A stretch of DNA of 41,529 nucleotides from a virus (lineage: Duplodnaviria; Caudoviricetes). The translations under genes were made by a program, and so were the position numbers. The notes beneath the pieces are model-generated. The model saw only the letters and a program-made list of their open reading frames with translations, was not told the origin of the DNA and made no database searches. The stretch is from positions 1 to 41,529 of the IMG/VR virus record IMGVR_UViG_3300037722_000461; one strand, written 5' to 3'. Position 1 is the first letter of the stretch, and each line of letters starts with the position of its first letter. Shown in pieces: positions 23,295 to 32,395 of the stretch.

Positions 23295-23849
23295 TTATGA
23301 GTATCGTCCGAACAACCTCACGAGCGGGCCGCTCATGGCGCGGATGCGTTCGGGATGCGGGCATTTTTCGAACGCCTGCCGCCAGAATTTGAGATGACCT
23401 TCAAGCGGCGCGTGCCATGCTACGTGATCGACGCCTGGACGCGGATGACAGTATTTTACCCTGCCCTGATAGCAATCCATGCCGCACAGGATGACGGGAT
23501 CGTAGCCGCACCAGAGAGCGTACCAGGTGGCGAGGGACGATGAGAAATCTCCGCGCCACGCACCTGGCGGCAGCGGCACATGCGATGTCTCAAATGGAGA
23601 AACAATCGTGCCCTTGAAGCCCCTGGCAATCTGCGCGACCTCATAGACGTTTGTCAGGCGATCTTGATGGACGAGCACGTGTGGTTCACAAAAATAAAAC
23701 GCATGATTGTTGACACTTATCAACACGCATTCGTCTGGCAGTTTTTTGAGATCGCGCGGCAACGACGGTCCACCGCCCAGGACGGCGGCAGGTCGGGTGG
23801 ACGCTTTAGTTTGAAAGACAGTCATTAATGGGCGAAGTTGAGCCGCCAC
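23295..23849 (-). CDS. Paralogous Maf/DUF115-like putative glycosyltransferase
   Basis: VLGGGPSL, ISVN, VILCGMD; shares KYCH and PHPER with its neighbour. Confidence 0.7.
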   Translation of the reverse strand: MAAQLRPLMTVFQTKASTRPAAVLGGGPSLPRDLKKLPDECVLISVNNHAFYFCEPHVLVHQDRLTNVYEVAQIARGFKGTIVSPFETSHVPLPPGAWRGDFSSSLATWYALWCGYDPVILCGMDCYQGRVKYCHPRPGVDHVAWHAPLEGHLKFWRQAFEKCPHPERIRAMSGPLVRLFGRYS

Positions 23850-23954
23850 GCCCGTTCATGGAAGCGGCGTAAATGTTCCGCACATCCTACATCGAACGCC
23901 TTTTAATATTGTTACGTCTTCCTCCTTCCCGTGCAAAGCCGACGGGAGTTCGGC
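23842..23954 (-). repeat. Degenerate attC8, distal end of array
   Basis: GCCGCCGAAC-TCCCGT ... ACGGG-C-GTGGCGGC; right end coincides with the GTG start of the 23849 gene. Confidence 0.4.
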
Positions 23955-24143
23955 GGCATGGGCGTCCTCGGCTTTTCGCCTCTCGTATACTTCGTTAGCA
24001 ATCTCATCAACACCCATTGCAACAAACCAACTCTCAAGGGCGGTACGCGCCATCTCTTTAAGTTTTTTAGGGTCTCTTTCACGACTATAACCGATAACAT
24101 CCAATACAGATACTAAGTGCGAGATTTGTTCCTTTGTAGGCAT
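23856..24143 (-). CDS. Cassette 8 ORF, hypothetical protein with C-terminal CxxC
   Basis: GAAAGG RBS; reads through R'' (AAEL). Confidence 0.65.
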   Translation of the reverse strand: MPTKEQISHLVSVLDVIGYSRERDPKKLKEMARTALESWFVAMGVDEIANEVYERRKAEDAHAAELPSALHGKEEDVTILKGVRCRMCGTFTPLP

Positions 24144-24176
24144 ACGTTTTTCCTTTCATGGAGCCGATACTCCCGT

Positions 24177-24290
24177 TTACAATGGGTTTGCGTAACCCGC
24201 CCTATGCAGGCAAGTTACTTTCGGATTTCACGACATCAGGCAGGCTCAAAACCGCCGCCTTCAAAGAGTCGGGTTCACGCGGTGTTGGCT
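24177..24290 (-). repeat. attC7 (ibrAB cassette)
   Basis: AGCCAAC-acc-GCGT[G]AACCCG...CGGGTT-ACGC-aaaccc-ATTGTAA. Confidence 0.8.
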
Positions 24291-24462
24291 GTGCTTTTCC
24301 ATTTATTACCGCTGTTTCATAAGCAGACCATGACGGCTTGCCTTTATAAAAATAACCTGCCTTACCTGCGGCTTCGTTCAATGCCGCTGTGCGTTTTGAT
24401 TGCCGAGTTGCTTTTGTGCTGTCTTTCCAATTCGGATCATGCTTGCGTTTCTTTTGCTTCAT
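24202..24462 (-). CDS. Small basic, putative DNA-binding protein (last gene of ibrAB cassette)
   Basis: ATGA overlap with ibrB; C-terminus runs into attC7. Confidence 0.65.
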   Translation of the reverse strand: MKQKKRKHDPNWKDSTKATRQSKRTAALNEAAGKAGYFYKGKPSWSAYETAVINGKAQPTPREPDSLKAAVLSLPDVVKSESNLPA

Positions 24463-24977
24463 GCCATCTCCCATGCTTCGGAAAATTCATCATCTCCAAA
24501 CAAATCCGCAAGACCTGATATTTGCTTCAAACGCAAAACTTCATCAGGTTCCATTCCAAGTTCTTTTGCTATTTTCTGATCGCTCCAATTTCGGCGGGCA
24601 AGTTCTTGCACGATTTCAGACATTGCGCCTACTTGATGTTTTCCGCGTGCGCGATTATGGCGAATGGTTGAAGCAATGCGGTCTGATCGGTCTGTACGTC
24701 CTTCGCTGATTACGACAACAGGCAAATGAGACATGCCAAGTTTCTTGCCAACTAAATGACGGTGAAAACCATCAACGACTTCATAGCCGTTTTCAGTTTG
24801 CCAGACAACAATCGGCTGCGTAAAGCCATCTTCAAGGATACTCAATTCAAGCAATTCCATTTCAGGCTTTGCAACTGAGTTTGGGTTGTAATCGTTTGCA
24901 AAAACTTTATCCGTTAGAACCCATTGCACAAACGAAACTGGATGTTGTTTCGTCCACTCTAAATCATTAGTTTCCAT
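24459..24977 (-). CDS. ibrB: IbrB-like ParB/Srx-domain protein
   Basis: ANDYNPN, DGFTQPIV, VVDGFHR, STIRHNRARGKH. Confidence 0.9.
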   Translation of the reverse strand: METNDLEWTKQHPVSFVQWVLTDKVFANDYNPNSVAKPEMELLELSILEDGFTQPIVVWQTENGYEVVDGFHRHLVGKKLGMSHLPVVVISEGRTDRSDRIASTIRHNRARGKHQVGAMSEIVQELARRNWSDQKIAKELGMEPDEVLRLKQISGLADLFGDDEFSEAWEMA

Positions 24978-26161
24978 TCCTGTCTCCTGCGCTTCATCAA
25001 CTTTGTATATTTTTCGTATGCTTCGGATTTATGCTGACTAAAAGATAAGCCCTTGCACCAGTAGTCATTTCTCAAAAGTGCTTTGCAAATTCTCTTCCAA
25101 CTTGGCGCAGACTTGTCAAGCGGTCCGTCATCAGGAATTCCACCGGCATAACCGCGATCTTGATACCACTTCAAAAAAACAGCGATCTTATCTTTGTAGT
25201 GCTCCGCATGCTTTGGCGGAAGTGTGTCAATCAACATTAGCGCAAATGATTGCCAAGTGTGTCCAGGTGGAAGGGAAACTGTATTCACTCCGAGAATATT
25301 CCCGATTTCTTGAGCGTACAATGCGCCTTGATTTGCTCCGTTCACGCGGGCTACAATCTTCCCCCATGTTTCAGGCTCGATGATGTGAAACAGCCATAAA
25401 CCTTTTCGCTGATCGTCACCGTAGGGTTGGCAAATTCGCATTTGGTGAATCGTCAAACCTGCCTGATACATGCGGTCATAAAGTTTGTTGTATGGCTTAT
25501 CTGGATTGCGTCCCTGCCAAATCCAAAGGTCTTTTGTTTTCCAATCGTAAATCGGATAAGCATTGTAAAGACTTTCACCGCACCACGTTGTCCATTGATG
25601 ACCGTCAATAGTTTGTTTCTTTTCGCTTGCAATTGTGCGCCATCGGTTTAGGCTTTCATCTGTGCGGATGCCTACAAAGCAAGCCGTCAATTTCCCTTGA
25701 CCGTACCAATGACCGAACGCGGGGATAAATTCTTCAAACTCCATTGCGCTTCGGAAAAATGGAAAATAATTCTCATCCGTGATTGCCATCTCTGGCGGAT
25801 TTCTTATCCACGCTTCTTCTTTTCCTCGTTCCCAGCAGACCCATTGCGGCTGGTACTGGCTGACTGCATTACGAAGATGAATTGGCAATGCTACCCAATA
25901 AGGGTCAATGTTTTCTGCGTACATATCGTAGCAAGTTTTGATGTGGTCAATCGTGAGTTTATATTGTCCTTCCAAATCCACAAACAGCACGCCTATTTTC
26001 TTACCGCGTTTGATTGCTTCCGCCATTACTAAATGCAACATGACGGTTGAATCTTTCCCGCCAGAAAACGAAAGATAGATTTTCGGGAACGTGTCGAACA
26101 CATATTCTATTCGTCGTTTTGCGGCTTCGTAAGTTGTGATGCCGAGTGATCTTTTATCCAT
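24959..26161 (-). CDS. ibrA: IbrA-like PAPS-reductase-family/DUF3440 protein
   Basis: SFSGGKDS PP-loop, GIRTDESLNR, YPIYDW, RICQPYG, LLRNDYWC. Confidence 0.9.
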   Translation of the reverse strand: MDKRSLGITTYEAAKRRIEYVFDTFPKIYLSFSGGKDSTVMLHLVMAEAIKRGKKIGVLFVDLEGQYKLTIDHIKTCYDMYAENIDPYWVALPIHLRNAVSQYQPQWVCWERGKEEAWIRNPPEMAITDENYFPFFRSAMEFEEFIPAFGHWYGQGKLTACFVGIRTDESLNRWRTIASEKKQTIDGHQWTTWCGESLYNAYPIYDWKTKDLWIWQGRNPDKPYNKLYDRMYQAGLTIHQMRICQPYGDDQRKGLWLFHIIEPETWGKIVARVNGANQGALYAQEIGNILGVNTVSLPPGHTWQSFALMLIDTLPPKHAEHYKDKIAVFLKWYQDRGYAGGIPDDGPLDKSAPSWKRICKALLRNDYWCKGLSFSQHKSEAYEKYTKLMKRRRQEWKLMI

Positions 26162-26535
26162 TGGTTTACAAATTCCTTATCAACTCGCTGGATTTCTCCA
26201 TCATCTGTGACTGTGCAAAAATATCGCTCTGTTTTCTTCCAGTTCTTTGGCGCGCTTACTTCGTAAACATAACCGCTTTCAAGAATGTACCAAAGAAAAA
26301 CTCCGCGCGATCCTTTGCTGTTTGCTTTTTTATAATCTTTCTTTGCTTTTAGAAATTGGCGAGAATATCCGAATTTCGGATCAGTACCTACAATCATTGC
26401 GACCCAGTAATCAGGCTTTGGTGCGCCAATCGCGTCTCCGAGACCTGGCGCACCATCGTTCAAAATGCCTGTCCAAAGTCGCATGTATTGAAAGGTATTA
26501 TCTCCAATCGCTTCGACTTTGAGCGTTGCTTTCAT
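26107..26535 (-). CDS. Hypothetical protein upstream of ibrA
   Basis: TAATG coupling; KDY..ANSKGSRGV...YEV...RYFC. Confidence 0.7.
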   Translation of the reverse strand: MKATLKVEAIGDNTFQYMRLWTGILNDGAPGLGDAIGAPKPDYWVAMIVGTDPKFGYSRQFLKAKKDYKKANSKGSRGVFLWYILESGYVYEVSAPKNWKKTERYFCTVTDDGEIQRVDKEFVNQWIKDHSASQLTKPQNDE

Positions 26536-26804
26536 TAGCAATCCACGAAGTAAACACCTTGCTCTGCGTTGTATTCCGATATTGCTTTATCGGCTTCTCG
26601 AACCATTGCCGCACGAAAGTTCTCAACTGCGTCTTGATGGGCGGCTTCTTTTGTTTCGCCTTTTCCGTGATAATTGCCATTATCAGTCACGATCTTGCAG
26701 GTGTAATACGGAACAAATTCACCTTCGTTTTCATCAACTTCCACCAGTCCCGCGAACGGTCTTTCGGTTACGTGCTTTGTTTTGACTTTCTTGATAGTAA
26801 TCAT
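26535..26804 (-). CDS. Hypothetical protein, first gene of ibrAB cassette
   Basis: AAGGAG RBS, ATG at 26804. Confidence 0.7.
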   Translation of the reverse strand: MITIKKVKTKHVTERPFAGLVEVDENEGEFVPYYTCKIVTDNGNYHGKGETKEAAHQDAVENFRAAMVREADKAISEYNAEQGVYFVDC

Positions 26805-26836
26805 TTTGTTATCTCCTTGTTTGGTTTGATTGCTCA

Positions 26837-26865
26837 ATATTACTACACGTTATATAACGTGTCAA
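26837..26865 (-). promoter_or_regulatory. Sigma70 promoter of ibrAB cassette with palindromic operator
   Basis: TTGACA-17 bp-TAATAT; perfect 18-bp palindrome ACACGTTATATAACGTGT (26845-26862). Confidence 0.8.
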
Positions 26866-26925
26866 GAGTAAACAAGAAACTCGTTTTGCTCGATTTTTGC
26901 ACGAAACCATGAACTCGGAGCAAAC

Positions 26926-26972
26926 AGCCAACGGGGCGCGAATGCGCGAGCGTTTTCGCTCGCGCATTCGGG
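26926..26972 (-). repeat. Minimal attC6-like site of an ORF-less ~86-bp cassette
   Basis: CCCGAAT, 14-bp perfect stem CGAATGCGCGAGCG-AAAA-CGCTCGCGCATTCG, then cgcccc-GTTGGCT. Confidence 0.5.
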
Positions 26973-27011
26973 GGATGCAAGCCCCCCGCACTTTGGGGGA
27001 GCGCAGCGTCC

Positions 27012-27151
27012 GCCGAACGGGCGCGGGATGAGCGGACGACGCGAGGGGCGGTCATCACAACTCATCCCAAGCCCTACTAATCAATCTTTGGTACGGACAT
27101 CATTGGCGGTCTCATCCGCCCCTGCTCGTTCCGCTCCATCCATAGTTCGGT
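27012..27151 (-). repeat. attC5
   Basis: ACCGAAC-tat-GGATG[G]AGCGG[A]ACG...CGT-CCGCT-CATCC-cgcgccc-GTTCGGC. Confidence 0.85.
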
Positions 27152-27200
27152 GGCGCGATAGCGAAGGAATCATCCTTGCTAATTTATGACAAATGGACAT
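27081..27200 (-). CDS. Cassette 5 short ORF (39 aa)
   Basis: GAGGTG RBS, TGATG overlap; MSICHKLARM... ends inside the attC5 loop. Confidence 0.4.
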   Translation of the reverse strand: MSICHKLARMIPSLSRHRTMDGAERAGADETANDVRTKD

Positions 27201-27562
27201 CACACCTCTTTTCTCTCAAGAACTATGGATGCATCCCGCGCCCGTTCGGTGGCGAGGCGAGGACTCTTCTTTGCAGGCTTCGGGTCATGGTCTGGATTGG
27301 TTAGAAGGCTTTCTAATTGCGCTTCCAACTCTTTTACGCGTTTCTGTAAAGCCCTAACCCGACTAGGTGCGGCATGTAGACTATCGGGCCAACCAAGACC
27401 GTCTTTCATTTTGTCACCGAACTGAGCTGCTTCATCGCAAGCCTGTAACGTGTTTCCATAAGTGGCGACATATTGCATGCGTCCCTTTGTGGCAAAGCAG
27501 ATGATATGGTCATATCCATATTTTTTCGACAATTCTTTTAGCGATTTGATTGGGATGTTCAT
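27200..27562 (-). CDS. Hypothetical protein nested in the cassette 5 leader
   Basis: GAAAGGA RBS; bracketed by GTTAGAAGGCT / AGCCTTCTAAC. Confidence 0.7.
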   Translation of the reverse strand: MNIPIKSLKELSKKYGYDHIICFATKGRMQYVATYGNTLQACDEAAQFGDKMKDGLGWPDSLHAAPSRVRALQKRVKELEAQLESLLTNPDHDPKPAKKSPRLATERARDASIVLERKEV

Positions 27563-27656
27563 AGATTCCTTTCTAGCAAAGTAGCCTTCTAACTCCTCAC
27601 GGCGGGCAAGCGGGGGCTAACGAGGGGGCTGGCGTACCCGCCAGTCTCCGAGCGCC

Positions 27657-27820
27657 ACCGAACGGGGGCGCGATGAGCCGCACGGCGACGGTTACGAAAG
27701 CGGCGTCTCTGATCCGCATTTATCACACTTGCACAATATACCAGGGTTTGCAGATGCAACCCAATGATGCTCACAAGCCGCTTGAGTGTCGCCAGTGTCG
27801 GCTCCATTGCTGTGTTCGGC
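27657..27820 (-). repeat. attC4
   Basis: GCCGAAC-acagca-ATG[G]AGCCG[A]CAC..GGCGAC...GTCGCC-GTG-CGGCT-CAT-cgcgccccc-GTTCGGT. Confidence 0.85.
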
Positions 27821-27940
27821 GGCACGGGTTATCTCGTCAAAATACTCATCTTCCGTCATTTGGATGAGATAGAGAAAGATACGGAAGGCTACACCCGACA
27901 ACCATTCTCGAATTTTACTGCCTAAACTTTGTTTACCCAT
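27692..27940 (-). CDS. Cassette 4 ORF: helical N-module plus C-terminal Zn finger
   Basis: GAAAGGTG RBS; CEHHW...CDKC encoded in the attC4 loop. Confidence 0.65.
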   Translation of the reverse strand: MGKQSLGSKIREWLSGVAFRIFLYLIQMTEDEYFDEITRAAEHSNGADTGDTQAACEHHWVASANPGILCKCDKCGSETPLS

Positions 27941-28009
27941 TCGTCTTCACCTTTCAGAGAGCCGATACACAGCAATTGCATCGCGCCCCCGTTCGGCGGC
28001 GAAGCCGCT

Positions 28010-28219
28010 CTACCGCCCATGAAAATCCAAGGCTTGTTGATAGCGACCATTGGCGTCACCGCCAGCAGACACAGCAGACACAACGGATGCCCACTCCTCA
28101 GGCGGAATGACCATACGAGTAATGATAGGCGATTCAAGCCCTGCATCTTTGCGCTTGGTGACCATCACCGAGCCATCCGGCAAGCGCTGGAAAAACCATC
28201 CTTCTTTCAAGTGAAACAT
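28010..28219 (-). CDS. Hypothetical protein nested in the cassette 4 leader
   Basis: GAGGAGG RBS; flanked by a perfect 14-bp inverted repeat. Confidence 0.7.
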   Translation of the reverse strand: MFHLKEGWFFQRLPDGSVMVTKRKDAGLESPIITRMVIPPEEWASVVSAVSAGGDANGRYQQALDFHGR

Positions 28220-28295
28220 TTGTGCCTCCTCAGGCGGTAGAGCGGCGGTAACGAGTGATGCCCACGCTCTTGGTTTATGTGGGCGTCCGAGTGCC

Positions 28296-28455
28296 GCCGA
28301 ATGGCGCGAGCGTCACCTGACGTCCGCCGTTTTGAGAACTGCGCTCACCGCTTCGTAAGACTCTTCTGAAAGCAAGTCCATTTCGTTATCGTGCCTGTCT
28401 CGAATTGTGCGGAGCAGTTCGATGGCGGAACGTTCAGGTGCACGCAGAGTTGGGC
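28296..28455 (-). repeat. attC3
   Basis: GCCCAAC-tct-GCGT[G]CACCTG[A]ACG...CGT-CAGGTG-ACGC-tcgcgcc-ATTCGGC. Confidence 0.85.
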
Positions 28456-28642
28456 TGCGCGGGTCAAGGCAAAAAGCATTGTCATAAATGAAATTAGCCA
28501 GTCGAGATACTTCATCTGCAAATGTTTTTAACATTGCCGCCGTCGTTTCTGGCGAGATACCATTGTCCCAATAGTACTCATTCAGCGCATCTCTCATTGC
28601 CTGATATTTTTCAGAGTTTCTCGTAACATCTATTTGCGACAT
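28313..28642 (-). CDS. Cassette 3 ORF, hypothetical
   Basis: GAAAGGT RBS; reads through the attC left arm (PTLRAP); stop lies within L'. Confidence 0.7.
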   Translation of the reverse strand: MSQIDVTRNSEKYQAMRDALNEYYWDNGISPETTAAMLKTFADEVSRLANFIYDNAFCLDPRSPTLRAPERSAIELLRTIRDRHDNEMDLLSEESYEAVSAVLKTADVR

Positions 28643-28739
28643 ACTTTACCTTTCTACTAAAGCGCAGGTCAATCTCTGCGTTTACGCTCGCGCCATTGGG
28701 CTGACCAAGCCCCCCGCCTTTTGGGGGAGCGAAGCGTCA

Positions 28740-28967
28740 GCCCAATGGGGCGCGGAATAAGCGGCGAGCGGGGCGTTTAGAAAAGCCGCCATCTTTCGTG
28801 CCAAATATTTACTCGACATCGGGAAGCCACGGTTCACTCCCAAAAGGGACGAACATTTGGCAACCTTCACATTTATAGCCATAGTATCCTTTCTTCCAGT
28901 CGTGCTTATTAGGATTGCACGATGGGCTTTTCTGCCCCGCATCGACCGCTTCATTCCGCAGTTCGTC
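28740..28967 (-). repeat. attC2
   Basis: GACGAAC-t-GCGGAAT[G]AAGCGG[T]CGA.GCGGGG...CCCCGC-TCG-CCGCTT-ATTCCGC-gcccc-ATTGGGC. Confidence 0.85.
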
Positions 28968-29078
28968 GGCGCGTATCTGGCTCGTGTTGATGACTTCAAG
29001 TTCACACTTGCAGGCGACGCACCAATTGTAGAGAGTATTAAAGTAGACTTGTCGGCATGACGGGCAATATAGAAACAT
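28809..29078 (-). CDS. Cassette 2 ORF: two Cys-rich modules
   Basis: AAGGAG RBS; CPSC..CVAC, then C....H....CEGC in the attC2 loop. Confidence 0.7.
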   Translation of the reverse strand: MFLYCPSCRQVYFNTLYNWCVACKCELEVINTSQIRADELRNEAVDAGQKSPSCNPNKHDWKKGYYGYKCEGCQMFVPFGSEPWLPDVE

Positions 29079-29176
29079 AGCGACACTCCTTTACTTTCTG
29101 GAGACGGGCTGAGGAATGTATCCCGCGCCCCATTCGTCGGACCAAGCCCCCCGCAGTTTGGGGGAGCGAAGCGTCA

Positions 29177-29410
29177 GCCCAATGGCGCGAGCGTCACCTG
29201 CAAGGGCGACGTTCACGCAGAAATCGGTTTCCCGCAATGAAAACAAAAAAAGACTTCGTTTTCGTCAAGGTCACCGTCAATAAAACAATACGCGCTTCCA
29301 CACGCGGTATCATACGAGCTACTTTCCTCGTCATCATTGCGCGTCCAGCTACACGTTTGCACGGACGATTTCGGAGTGTCGTCCTTGACAGGTGCACGCA
29401 GTAGTTGGGC
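29177..29410 (-). repeat. attC1
   Basis: GCCCAAC-tact-GCGT[G]CACCTG[T]CAAGG.CGAC...GTCG.CCTTG-CAGGTG-ACGC-tcgcgcc-ATTGGGC. Confidence 0.85.
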
Positions 29411-29533
29411 TGCGCGGGGTTGCCATTCATTCACCCACGATGGAGCCAAAAACATGGGGTACTCTTTACAAACCGTCTGTATCCAATAGACAGCATTATT
29501 AATCATTTCATCTTTCGTCAATGTTTGCGACAT
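29213..29533 (-). CDS. Cassette 1 ORF with C-terminal Zn-ribbon domain
   Basis: GAGAGGT RBS; CSW...TACG...FCFHCGKPI encoded in the attC1 loop. Confidence 0.7.
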   Translation of the reverse strand: MSQTLTKDEMINNAVYWIQTVCKEYPMFLAPSWVNEWQPRAAQLLRAPVKDDTPKSSVQTCSWTRNDDEESSSYDTACGSAYCFIDGDLDENEVFFCFHCGKPISA

Positions 29534-29553
29534 ATTTTACCTCTCAGTTCCTA

Positions 29554-29592
29554 GCAGCCCTACTATCCTTATCCACTTACGGACGGATAATA
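29554..29592 (-). other. Putative attI, overlapping the 3' end of intI
   Basis: ATTATCCGTCCGTAAGTGGATAAGGATA-GTAGGGCTGC; the core is complementary (1 mismatch) to the cassette 1 R'' GCAGCCCAAC. Confidence 0.6.
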
Positions 29593-30602
29593 TTCCACTG
29601 GACAGACTCCAATTTATCCAGCGGACTTTCCACCCCAACGCCCCCAGGGTGGAGAAGATGCAAATAGACCATCGTGGTTTTGATATCCTTGTGTCCCATC
29701 AATTCCTGCACTGTGCGAATGTCGTATCCAGCCCAGAGCAAATGAGTTGCATAACAATGGCGGAATACGTGTGGTGTGACACGTTTCGTGATCCCAGCCT
29801 TGATAGTCGCTCTGCGGATCGCCCGTTGCAGTTCGCTCTCGTGCTGATGGTGCCGTCGGCGGATCTTCGTCTCAGGGTCTACGCTGTAATTCTGCGCAGG
29901 AAATACCCAGAACCAACCCCAATCACAGCCGATGTTTGGATATTTCCTGTCCAGCGCTCCAGGGACGTATACACCAGGCATCCCGCGCTGTTGATCGATA
30001 TTCCAGAAATTCCGCGCAATGGACATCTGATCCATCAACGGCTTGACCAGTGTGTTCGGCAATGGGACCGTGCGATCTTTGTCCCCCTTGCCGCCTCGCA
30101 CCGTGACAGTCATCAACCCGAAATCAATATCCTTGGTCCGCAACTGTTGACACTCATTCAGTCGCAGACCACACCCATACAGTAACCGCGCCATCAAATT
30201 TAACGGATCGCCATCTACGTGATTCAAGACACGCGCCGTATCCTCGCGGTTCAATACTGACGGCAGTCTCTTCCCTTCCTTCGCTCGCATGGACTCCACT
30301 CCCCGAATGTCCACACCCAGAATTTCACGGTAAAGGAATAGGATCGCATGGAGACATTGATTCTGTGTTGAAGCGGCAACCTTAGCAGTGTTGGCAAGAT
30401 GATTTAAATACTTTTCGATCTCCGCTTTTCCCATCTCGCGCGGATGCCGCTTTCCGTGGAAGAGGATGAACCGTCTGCACCAGGTCACATAGGTTGTCAG
30501 TGTTTTTCGGCTGTAATGTTTCATGCGGATTTTATCCGCCAGTTGATCAAGTAACTTCGGTTCAGGCATTGACAGCATCTCCTTGTAATTCGGCTTGTCC
30601 AC
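29577..30602 (-). CDS. intI: Integron integrase
   Basis: KLLDQ..IRMKHYS.KT...VAASTQNQ N-domain; GLR, GKGDKDR, HVFRH, LMGH, TMVY catalytic set; IntI-specific insertion VYVPGALDRKYP...W.WFWVFPA. Confidence 0.97.
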   Translation of the reverse strand: MDKPNYKEMLSMPEPKLLDQLADKIRMKHYSRKTLTTYVTWCRRFILFHGKRHPREMGKAEIEKYLNHLANTAKVAASTQNQCLHAILFLYREILGVDIRGVESMRAKEGKRLPSVLNREDTARVLNHVDGDPLNLMARLLYGCGLRLNECQQLRTKDIDFGLMTVTVRGGKGDKDRTVPLPNTLVKPLMDQMSIARNFWNIDQQRGMPGVYVPGALDRKYPNIGCDWGWFWVFPAQNYSVDPETKIRRRHHQHESELQRAIRRATIKAGITKRVTPHVFRHCYATHLLWAGYDIRTVQELMGHKDIKTTMVYLHLLHPGGVGVESPLDKLESVQWNIIRP

Positions 30603-32395
30603 TAGAATCCCAGACCTTCCAAGCTCCTCGATGATGTTGCTTCGCGCAGGGCGGCGACGCGGATGAGGGCGGTGATGGATGCGGCGAGCAGGTCCACGCG
30701 TTTGGTGTCGCCTGCGAACTTTTTGGTTATCATTATGTTTTCCTTCGAATCGGTGATCTGTATGGCGTTGGCCACGTGCGCCCGCAGGAGGGGGTTCCCA
30801 TCGTGGACGAAATTACCAGAGATGACGAGCTCGCGCAGGTATTTTGTGGCTTCTGACAGGCTGGGCATGGTCTGGCGAACCTCGACGCGGGTATAACCAC
30901 GTTCTTCGAAATCGATAGCAAAGCGGGTGGCGGAGTAGGGGTCGTAACAGAGTTCAAAAATGCGGATCTGCCCGTCGAGTTCAGAATCAATGATGAAGTC
31001 ACGCATGACTCTGTCGTCGATCACGTCGCCTGGGTTGGTGGTGATCCAGCCATCGTCAACGTATGTCTGATAGGGTATCTTGTCAGATTTTTCGTGAGCG
31101 GCGATGGCTTCTTCGGGCAGGAACCCGTGAGCGGTGAGGGCGACGCGCTCTTCGTCCATCGAAAAGATAAAGGCGGAGGCGGTGAGATCGATCTTTTTGG
31201 ACAGGTCAGCGCCCACGAGCGCATCCATGCCATGTGTGAGTTCGTCGAAGTCTGCGCGGGGGATGGCGCAGGCATCCCATTGTTCCATGAATTCTCCCAT
31301 ATAGCTGTCTCCTTTTGCGCCGTGTATCCAGAGGTTGAGTTTCTTGATACGGAACTGGCGCACCTTTTCGGGTATCTTGCTATCGAAGGCTGCGTCGTGC
31401 ATTTCTTGGAATTCGGCAATGCCTTCGGGTGTGGCGCACAGCAATGGATTGGCTTTGATCCAGTTGGCGGGTTTGTGTTCTTTGTCGTTCTTGTCGAGCT
31501 CGCGGATCATGACGAAATATCCATCGTTTGGAACGCGACCAGAGACGATCTCCCGGCAGTATTCGATTTCTTTGTAGCAGGACGACTCGGTATCGTTGCC
31601 CGCAGTGGTGATGATGAGCATGAGCGGCTGGAGACGCTGGCCCTGGGCAAGGTCGAGCGCGTCGTAGATCTCAGAAGTCTTGTGCGCCCAGTATTCATCA
31701 ATGACGGAGCAGGTGGGCGAGAAAGCGTCTTTGTTCTGGATGTCGCCCGAAAAGGCTCTCATTTCGCCGCCGCGGTCCTTATGGCGCATGTCGAAGAGTC
31801 CGATCTTGAGGCGTTTGCGAATACTCTTGGATTTTTTTGCCATGTCGCGTGCCGAGTTAAAGCACACTCTGGCTTGTAGTTTATCAACGGCGGCGGTGTA
31901 GACTTCTGGATTTTCCTCCATATCGGCGACCATCATATAGAGCGCGACGCCCGCTATGCGGGTGGTCTTGGCGTTCTTGCGTCCCTCGGTGATAAGTGCC
32001 TTACGGTAGCGGCGGATGCCTACCCTGCGACCATTGGAGCGGGTGATCTTTTTCGCGCGCGAGACCCATCCGAAGATCGAACCGATGTCGAAAACGTGGG
32101 CGGGGATGAGTTCGATGGGCTGTCCGACGAGCCTTCCCTTGATGTGCTGGAGTTCGCGGAACCAGTCGATGGCGACGAACGACGCCTGCGTTTCGTCGAA
32201 CTCCCAGGGGAAAGACCCGTCTTTCTTCGGAACAGCTTTTTTCGTCCCTTTACGCACCCTGGCTCTGAGGGACGAGTTCATCTGCCCTGCGCGGGCAAGG
32301 TCGTGCAGGTGGCGGAAACATGCCTGCCGCTCGGGCGTGCCTGTGATGACTCGGTTCTCGATCACGTCGAGGGCGTAGGATGTGACAGGGTGCAT
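30602..32395 (-). CDS. terL: Terminase large subunit
   Basis: Walker A GRKNAKT, Walker B VIDE, ITTAG, GADLS...DLTA, YDPY, RVD. Confidence 0.95.
   Translation of the reverse strand: MHPVTSYALDVIENRVITGTPERQACFRHLHDLARAGQMNSSLRARVRKGTKKAVPKKDGSFPWEFDETQASFVAIDWFRELQHIKGRLVGQPIELIPAHVFDIGSIFGWVSRAKKITRSNGRRVGIRRYRKALITEGRKNAKTTRIAGVALYMMVADMEENPEVYTAAVDKLQARVCFNSARDMAKKSKSIRKRLKIGLFDMRHKDRGGEMRAFSGDIQNKDAFSPTCSVIDEYWAHKTSEIYDALDLAQGQRLQPLMLIITTAGNDTESSCYKEIEYCREIVSGRVPNDGYFVMIRELDKNDKEHKPANWIKANPLLCATPEGIAEFQEMHDAAFDSKIPEKVRQFRIKKLNLWIHGAKGDSYMGEFMEQWDACAIPRADFDELTHGMDALVGADLSKKIDLTASAFIFSMDEERVALTAHGFLPEEAIAAHEKSDKIPYQTYVDDGWITTNPGDVIDDRVMRDFIIDSELDGQIRIFELCYDPYSATRFAIDFEERGYTRVEVRQTMPSLSEATKYLRELVISGNFVHDGNPLLRAHVANAIQITDSKENIMITKKFAGDTKRVDLLAASITALIRVAALREATSSRSLEGLGF

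Follow-up and report, generated by a model that had tools for sequence, protein, structure and literature searches.

Integrons carry an integrase of the IntI family, an attI site and an array of gene cassettes bounded at G|TT, as in the IntI1/attI1/attC system and in Vibrio cholerae, with IntIA and its repeat sites (VCR). The canonical attC is ordered R''-L''-loop-L'-R', with one extrahelical base and a core complementary to R''. Shuffling is known to be controlled at integrase expression, at strand exposure and by attC's own fold, and cassette formation has been named as an open question (PMC8618304). The window analysed here, the whole 41,529 nt of virus record IMGVR_UViG_3300037722_000461 (Duplodnaviria; Caudoviricetes), holds an array that is alike in all these features. 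It differs from canonical attC arrays in that the leader of a cassette contains a second, inverted, loop-less copy of that cassette's own attC, together with a hairpin, H; in a right spacer of 7-9 nt; in frequent A|TT ends; and in a reading frame that passes through the left arm and loop of attC. Leader cassettes are real and recurrent, apparently undescribed in print, and form an integron cassette variant with a predicted function; no description of such a leader was found in the full-text literature searched, which covers few subscription papers. On the strength of predicted folding we favour, with moderate confidence that amounts to an even call, the interpretation that the leader is a heritable, cassette-specific cis anti-attC lock that would lower the cassette's own excision by IntI.

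On the coding strand a leader cassette reads, in order, core, hairpin H, inverted core, inverted right spacer, the first 3 nt of the L box, a linker of 2-5 nt, the inverted left arm, the ribosome-binding site (RBS), the gene and attC. In window cassettes 2-5, on the minus strand, the two outer arms of the cassette's own attC recur as an inverted copy, at 29103-29142, 28662-28705, 27961-28000 and 27220-27254 respectively. An initial annotation had placed these copies at 29103-29140, 28662-28705, 27961-28000 and 27220-27254, with a partial copy at 24163-24176, and all five positions agree with the sequence; the partial copy, however, reaches 24182, where there is a true cassette boundary. The location just upstream of the RBS also stands, but H had been missed, and the copies of cassettes 4 and 5, though present, lie behind another gene (28219-28010 and 27562-27200) and not at the cassette start. 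H, which is conserved, usually stands ahead of the copy; it is 30 nt long, is closed by the cassette's own core and the inverted core, and is present in cassettes 2 (core plus H, 29143-29182) and 3 (28706-28745) and in a gene-less sixth remnant; in cassettes 4 and 5 its place is taken by the other gene, which comes with a separate inverted attC-like element whose loop is longer. A survey gave 35 leader cassettes overall, 4 from the window and the remaining 31 from 25 further loci (labelled L below), located by H and leader motif scans and by a detector whose 37 hits included two dropped as false (L027+398 and L172+353). In all 35 the two leader arms are joined exactly at the L box's extrahelical base, a G when read on the top strand.

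Each leader matches its own attC in preference to others. Over about 20 scored positions, the leaders of cassettes 2-5 show 2, 0, 0 and 0 mismatches to their own attC and 4-10 to other window attCs (4-7 for cassette 2, 8-10 for cassette 3, and 5-8 for cassettes 4 and 5). The copy was said to span the crossover point in cassettes 3-5, and there it does match the cassette's own 5' core at 9/9 positions in each, compared with 6/9 in cassette 2, as the claim implied. The private co-variation of AAT with ATT and AAC with GTT likewise holds in the window, where cassettes 2-3 have A and 4-5 have G, and the crossover base is matched in 34 of the 35 cassettes. Over the whole set, own mismatches total 15, whereas 100,000 permutations give a mean of 220 and never fewer than 139, and the own attC is strictly the best fit in 33 leaders, with one tie and one worse; these specificity counts are affected by the detector, which partly selects for leader/attC matches, and the loci are related and hence not independent samples. 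The suspicion that leaders might fit other attCs equally well is thus not borne out. The preference persists inside both attC sub-types, and the set comprises 24 attC signatures, 13 right-spacer variants and 19 left-spacer variants. By region, the match is 288/288 positions in the right spacer and 157/164 in the left spacer, and the core matches the inverted core at 268/306.

Because the detector favours matches, cassettes were also selected on H alone. This gave 44 hits, 34 with an attC call, of which 28 lay within 2 mismatches of the own attC; the six others comprise one miscall (L029), two cassettes with a perfect first arm, one that has lost its attC right arm, and two joined to an ordinary cassette. 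Starting instead from attC, a leader was found at 30/44 sites with a right spacer of 7-9 nt versus 1/43 with a 6-nt spacer. By eye, the 14 leaderless 7-9-nt sites resolve into eight false calls, two variant leaders, two A-rich ordinary sites, window cassette 1 and one site in L017. Chance or a generic repeat as the source of the leader is ruled out by the own-attC specificity together with these two controls.

An inverted empty mini-cassette, or a generic repeat, that is merely carried along would account for the loss of the element at its own G|T points in cassette 1, the last cassette and L022, which resembles the behaviour of a separate cassette. Against this, the element is specific for its own attC over the 13 right-spacer and 19 left-spacer variants, and its L arms are only 3 bp. 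H plus leader measures less than 90 nt and, with GTT intact in only 7/35 (ten other triplets occur in the remainder), lacks the complete attC of its own, full L boxes and intact GTT of an empty cassette. We consider this origin very improbable, and own-attC specificity and the two controls already largely refute it.

The attCs of leader cassettes form a recognisable class. All 35 have the R''/R' and L''/L' repeats, the extrahelical base and an unpaired central spacer, and their right spacer is A-free. They end in A|TT in 19/33 cases, a departure from the canonical G|TT, versus 2/46 ordinary sites, and 22/33 have a GAC-CGC motif ahead of R'' versus 0/46. In 68 host-group loci a leader accompanies none of 46 six-nt attCs, and one 7-nt site (L254) has a perfect leader, lying among genes that, by reading without a family scan, appear to be prophage genes. 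The leader-attC covariation that the initial annotation proposed to look for in other phage and Chloroflexota arrays recurs, in the 31 cassettes from 25 other loci. Wider scans added little: an H scan of the genome collection gave one true hit of six; the class-wide H pattern occurred in 18/401 genomes, with control hits in 11, and no leader cassette was detected at class-wide H loci other than that of genome G001, by a detector that misses some attCs; and searching the INPHARED phage DNA for the leader gave no match. A loose leader pattern in viral contigs returned 120 loci, essentially at chance level and with only weak hits on further scanning, and was excluded from the counts given above.

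The initial annotation had offered two readings, an anti-attC or a footprint of fold-back synthesis, and is partly supported. The anti-attC half is supported by cassette-specific covariation, recurrence and predicted folding; the footprint half, taken as a mark left by each cassette made, is not supported, in view of inherited alleles and an eroded TT. The linker and the degenerate distal end of the leader are inherited together as alleles across unrelated genes: AC with GCTCGAC occurs in four cassettes, GGA with GTCCGGC in three, and three more pairs are shared. The leader is therefore not copied afresh for each cassette made, and a fresh copy at every gene capture is ruled out. Inside allele families, spacer changes are mirrored in the leader (L169; L192 versus cassette 3; L042 versus L045). 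The three positions of the leader's distal GTT match in 31, 18 and 18 of 35 cases, and the next four in 26-31; the TT thus matches at 36/70 versus 147/175 at neighbouring positions, in lineages that are not independent. Where the leader's G|T has survived it has been used as a crossover, in cassette 1, in the last cassette, which starts at the GTT inside its leader, and in L022, whose leader G|TT is the joint to an ordinary cassette.

A weaker form of the copying idea is that a polymerase that starts from H, or from a nick at the leader's AA^C/T, renews the crossover-side arm and is halted by the folded inner stem or jumps it; the match would then result from recurrent copying or conversion during cassette making or cycling, and have little function in itself. 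The fusion, which is always at the base of the inner stem, the A-rich linkers, the gradient of fidelity from the right spacer to the left spacer, the core and the eroded distal end, and variants with longer retained stems (L027, L017 and the inserts of window cassettes 4 and 5) all suit such a process, as does L192, which shares the degenerate leader end of cassette 3 and yet has changed in spacer and leader together. Inheritance of linkers and distal alleles argues against remaking at gene capture, the TT is more eroded than positions farther out, and no reverse transcriptase, HUH nuclease or polymerase occurs among the 35 and 47 window open reading frames (ORFs) scanned. We regard this explanation as unlikely. 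The leader probably goes back to one or a few events that combined an inverted duplication with loss of the loop. A fold-back in an ancestor, or a deletion that skipped a hairpin, may have been its origin; alternatively, a copying step may refresh the crossover-side arm only. Mismatches between core and inverted core in cassette 2, L019, L025 and L026 are a sequence-level hint of homologous exchange at H.

The case for a lock comes from equilibrium folding of single-stranded DNA (ViennaRNA). In linear cassettes with their leader, predicted L-box pairing is below 0.1 in 32/32, and rises above 0.5 in 29/32 after the leader is shuffled. When cassettes were circularised, as had been suggested, R and L pairing was predicted to be 0.0 in all 28 circles folded, the leader displacing the R/L-paired fold. 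Three 5' starts were miscalled in this circle folding and in the core comparisons. The predicted probability of the recombinogenic bottom-strand fold (pfold) for window circles 2-5 is 2e-10, 2e-18, 2e-18 and 8e-12, so that this fold would be hardly accessible in the cassette context; with the leader shuffled the predictions become 3e-7 to 1.5e-5, 3-5e-2, 7e-4 and 0.17. Most of the predicted effect is due to the first leader arm, and the predicted structure is a three-way junction. For comparison, the lowest natural values are 1e-5 to 1e-7; low pfold reduces excision in IntI1 assays, and excision is undetectable between two low-pfold sites (Loot et al., PMC5371416). The canonical features are retained nonetheless, with the extrahelical G present in 35/35, the core matching R'' at 262/306 positions, and R'' keeping AAC even where the crossover base is A.

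As a lock, the leader would pair with attC on single-stranded DNA, in a three-way junction in which both attC arms are captured as far as the extrahelical base, and H would hold the cassette's core; with arms and core both sequestered, both sites flanking the cassette would be switched off. The canonical fold would remain the substrate of IntI. Because the bottom strand would expose attC before the leader, attC could briefly fold and be used, or might alternatively stay bound by IntI just after excision; the leader would then invade through the GC-rich spacer and close the lock. The three loops of the scaffold (H, gene and attC loop) might be exchanged by homologous recombination at the shared stems. 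Docking needs a complementary first nucleotide, failing which 1e3-1e4 is lost (Frumerie et al., PMC2811028). On this rule, and given the AAC kept in R'', an A|TT leader form should dock badly at a G|TT attI, and the canonical fold would keep one good pair; the canonical fold would thus be the better substrate there and the leader fold the off state.

The pairing could instead be productive. The leader might act as a splint or alternative substrate, complementing the circle junction, aligning both crossover points in the linear array and trapping the excised circle as a dumbbell, whose paired, double-strand-like junction IntI would recombine with attI. The first leader arm is indeed an exact complement of the junction, crossover base included in 34/35; the long spacer plus the L-box start gives a duplex of 11-13 bp; the cassettes are often first in the array, and shuffled; and IntI1 can recombine two double-stranded sites (PMC4792948). 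The docking rule is one difficulty, since A|TT cassettes stand behind a G|TT attI in L001, L014, L021 and L031, where the leader-paired form should dock poorly. Others are the retention of AAC in R'', of the extrahelical base and of core/R'' pairing, and the drop in IntI1 recombination when the spacer is paired (PMC2727003). We judge a splint role unlikely.

Several observations nevertheless weigh against the lock. The cassettes are plainly mobile: in the contigs compared (runs X2-X4), other cassette orders occur at the same attC boundaries, and by eye 15/44 H cassettes are first in their array, 8 of them at an attI motif, a count biased by the use of H-centred windows. On the folding model, a circle with a pfold of 1e-10 or lower should not integrate at equilibrium. 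So strong a lock on mobile cassettes therefore needs a kinetic window, capture by IntI, or a homologous exchange at H. Support for the toehold step is partial: when attC is folded on its own, L-box pairing exceeds 0.5 in 23/34 cases, and a median of 41% of the spacer is unpaired (12% in cassette 2). A brake of a predicted 14-25 kcal/mol would not obviously require a perfect spacer match of 288/288, which would fit copying as well. The calculations ignore single-stranded DNA-binding protein, supercoiling and IntI binding; the types of mismatch (wobble pairs) give no strand signal, and GC skew is uninformative on which strand is exposed.

The absence of a strand signal bears also on a role in RNA. 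The transcript could fold into the junction near the RBS and determine how well the cassette mRNA is translated, how stable it is or how it is processed, or it could neutralise the attC hairpin: the copy ends about 20 nt ahead of the start codon, the top strand is predicted to fold as well as the bottom strand, and H stems show compensatory changes. The full match to the own core across the crossover, however, exists only in the excised circle, and mismatches of the top-strand G-U type are not in excess (2 versus 3). No known structured RNA in Rfam, the DUF1874 motif included, matched at E<=1 in 23500-30700, and neither H nor leader gave a promoter or terminator signal above shuffles, by which such functions were rejected. 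An RNA role therefore seems quite improbable.

The scaffold has a further consequence for the encoded proteins. Cassette ORFs continue across R'' and the L box and on through the attC loop, and the loop often encodes a CxxC...CxxC module; exchange of scaffold loops would create fusion proteins, since the frame extends over the left arm of attC and its loop. Read-through ORFs occur in the window at 29533-27081 and in loci L001, L012 and L021-L042. A search with the L042 gene found 16 homologues of one N-terminal domain, of which 14 close ones are fused at the same point to several attC-encoded linkers with different C-termini; the two distant ones have another C-terminus, and no gene context was seen for them. 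A search for non-cassette copies of the N-terminal part of cassette 3 gave three hits, all of cassette type. Run X2 has other sequence both between the RBS and the motif preceding R'' and inside the attC3 loop. As read from these sequences, the joining of loop modules to varied N-terminal domains is a natural in-frame domain shuffle.

It is a doubtful but live possibility that the scaffold of H, leader and attC is a chassis for building cassettes. Foreign ORFs would be captured between the RBS and a conserved motif, GAC(A/C)CGCG, sharing their frame with a C-terminal module encoded by attC; the dumbbell formed by leader pairing would be the working intermediate, its match maintained by fold-back copying from H; and loss of H and leader at the leader's G|T would release an ordinary-looking cassette. 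If this were true, the way in which new cassettes are made would become visible, and the scaffold would be a natural system for shuffling domains. The scaffold puts unrelated genes in one frame, with natural fusions via attC, and so offers a handle on how cassettes are made.

The remaining features of the window array, all on the minus strand, show the scaffold in several states. Cassette 1 (29183-29562) has a leader-class attC (29410-29177) but has lost H and leader, and starts at the leader's degenerate end; its 5' junction matches the leader ends of L032 and L034, and its gene is found with full H and leader in L034 and in run X2 (joint 29547-28680). In cassette 2 the left arm and loop of attC2 (28740-28967) lie within ORF 29078-28809; attC3 (28296-28455) lies within ORF 28642-28313, the leader of cassette 3 being paired in the predicted fold, and attC4 (27657-27820) within ORF 27940-27692. 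attC5 (27012-27151) overlaps a 39-aa ORF (27200-27081). The gene-less remnant (26932-27017) consists of core, H and the first leader arm, followed by a fused stack of two attC right-arm pieces. Next comes an ordinary cassette of 2.7 kb (24183-26931; attC 24290-24177), in which no leader was seen by eye; it has a sigma-70-like promoter of its own (26865) and holds three small genes beside a pair coding for PAPS-reductase/DUF3440 and ParB. The last cassette (23829-24182) has a truncated leader (24182-24163) and a leader-class attC (23954-23823); in run X2 it is joined straight behind attC3, and an intact leader of the same spacer type is present in L254.

The insert that replaces H in cassette 4 (28010-28292) combines an inverted attC-like element that retains its loop (28292-28233) with a 69-aa gene (28219-28010) flanked by a 14-nt inverted repeat (28004-28017/28233-28246). 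That of cassette 5 (27255-27652) combines a similar element (27652-27583) with gene 27562-27200 (PHROG 38816), flanked by an 11-nt inverted repeat (27300-27310/27583-27593). Both insert genes (28292-28010 and 27652-27255) are headed by the loop-keeping elements and have no downstream attC, and neither insert has a homologue among the fetched loci. They are possibly older or nested leader forms; inverted integration of a top-strand circle was rejected, as the genes face forward. Elsewhere, further types of H hairpin, three or more, close that same stem of core and inverted core (L012 1826-1880; L017; L172; L254), and H stems with compensatory changes occur in L027, L166, L169, L183 and L185. 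In L001 (14690-14745) an attC lacks its right arm, and its left arm runs straight into an inverted, leader-like segment and then a new gene. In L015, L018, L032, L034, L040, L042 and L183, arrays or single cassettes begin, just before H, at AT-rich sites such as CATAG|TT with no upstream attC; these sites are candidate orphan attI or secondary sites in phages.

The window is an entire 41.5-kb virus record with terminase, portal, capsid, lysin and replication genes by ORF family scans. IntI is encoded at 29577-30602 on the minus strand (TIGR02249, 424.8 bits against a cut-off of 265), and its translation shows the R, K, HxxR, H and Y motifs plus the integron-type insertion; the cassette array lies downstream on the same strand. 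The gene abuts that of the terminase large subunit (30602-32395), the integron sitting between terminase and portal modules, and a second tyrosine integrase is encoded at 1571-2536. The attI site is placed by homology at 29556-29576 (minus strand), with the crossover at G29563|T29562, because the motif GATAAGGATAG after IntI recurs in three phages (L001, L002 and L003) whose IntI is 73-77% identical to that of the window and whose first cassettes differ. Cassettes are joined at G|TT beside intI; the window attI junction itself is G|TA. By its IntI, its attI and the rearrangement of its cassettes, the window element is an integron, in which recombination is presumably carried out by this IntI. 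One leader cassette (L185) sits in a contig titled Chloroflexi bacterium, and IntI relatives occur in 102/201 sampled genomes of the family of that Chloroflexi genome (G001); the best matches there are 43-56% identical, with ordinary attCs of 6-nt spacer styled like those of the phage arrays.

Elements that target attC are known, namely group IIC-attC introns and IS1111-attC elements, as are base-pairing guides that align recombination points, the IS200/IS605 guides and the IS110 bridge RNA. The leader element differs from all of these in having no reverse transcriptase or transposase ORF, neither reverse transcriptases nor the IS110 transposase family being found among the scanned window ORFs (35 and 47), and in having the cassette's own DNA as its partner. 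The DUF1874 motif is also a multistem structure in consecutive intergenic regions, suggested to be an unusual attC (Weinberg et al. 2017, PMC5737381); the present structure has no Rfam match, is long-range, encloses a gene and lies beside an integron integrase. Phage genomes with a complete integron or an attC array (CALIN) have been described (Qi et al. 2023, PMC9892861); the leader copy goes unmentioned in the portion of that paper available, and its supplements list further phage attC arrays that are possibly of this class. Phage Rctr41k (KX853513) has an IntI 54% identical to that of the window and the ordinary attC type of this lineage, with four attCs, none of which has a leader. In VCR the extrahelical base is described as G (PMC2727003), whereas here it is a bottom-strand C. 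The closest functional parallel is with the low-pfold VCR sites of sedentary Vibrio integrons, where a competing, non-recombinogenic fold damps excision (PMC5371416). There the misfold lies inside attC, with a pfold of 1e-5 to 1e-7 (PMC5371416); here it would be imposed by a dedicated, covarying element 100-300 nt away, with a predicted pfold of 1e-10 to 1e-18. Such a covarying antisense copy within the cassette would add a cis layer to the known controls, by which a cassette sets its own mobility.

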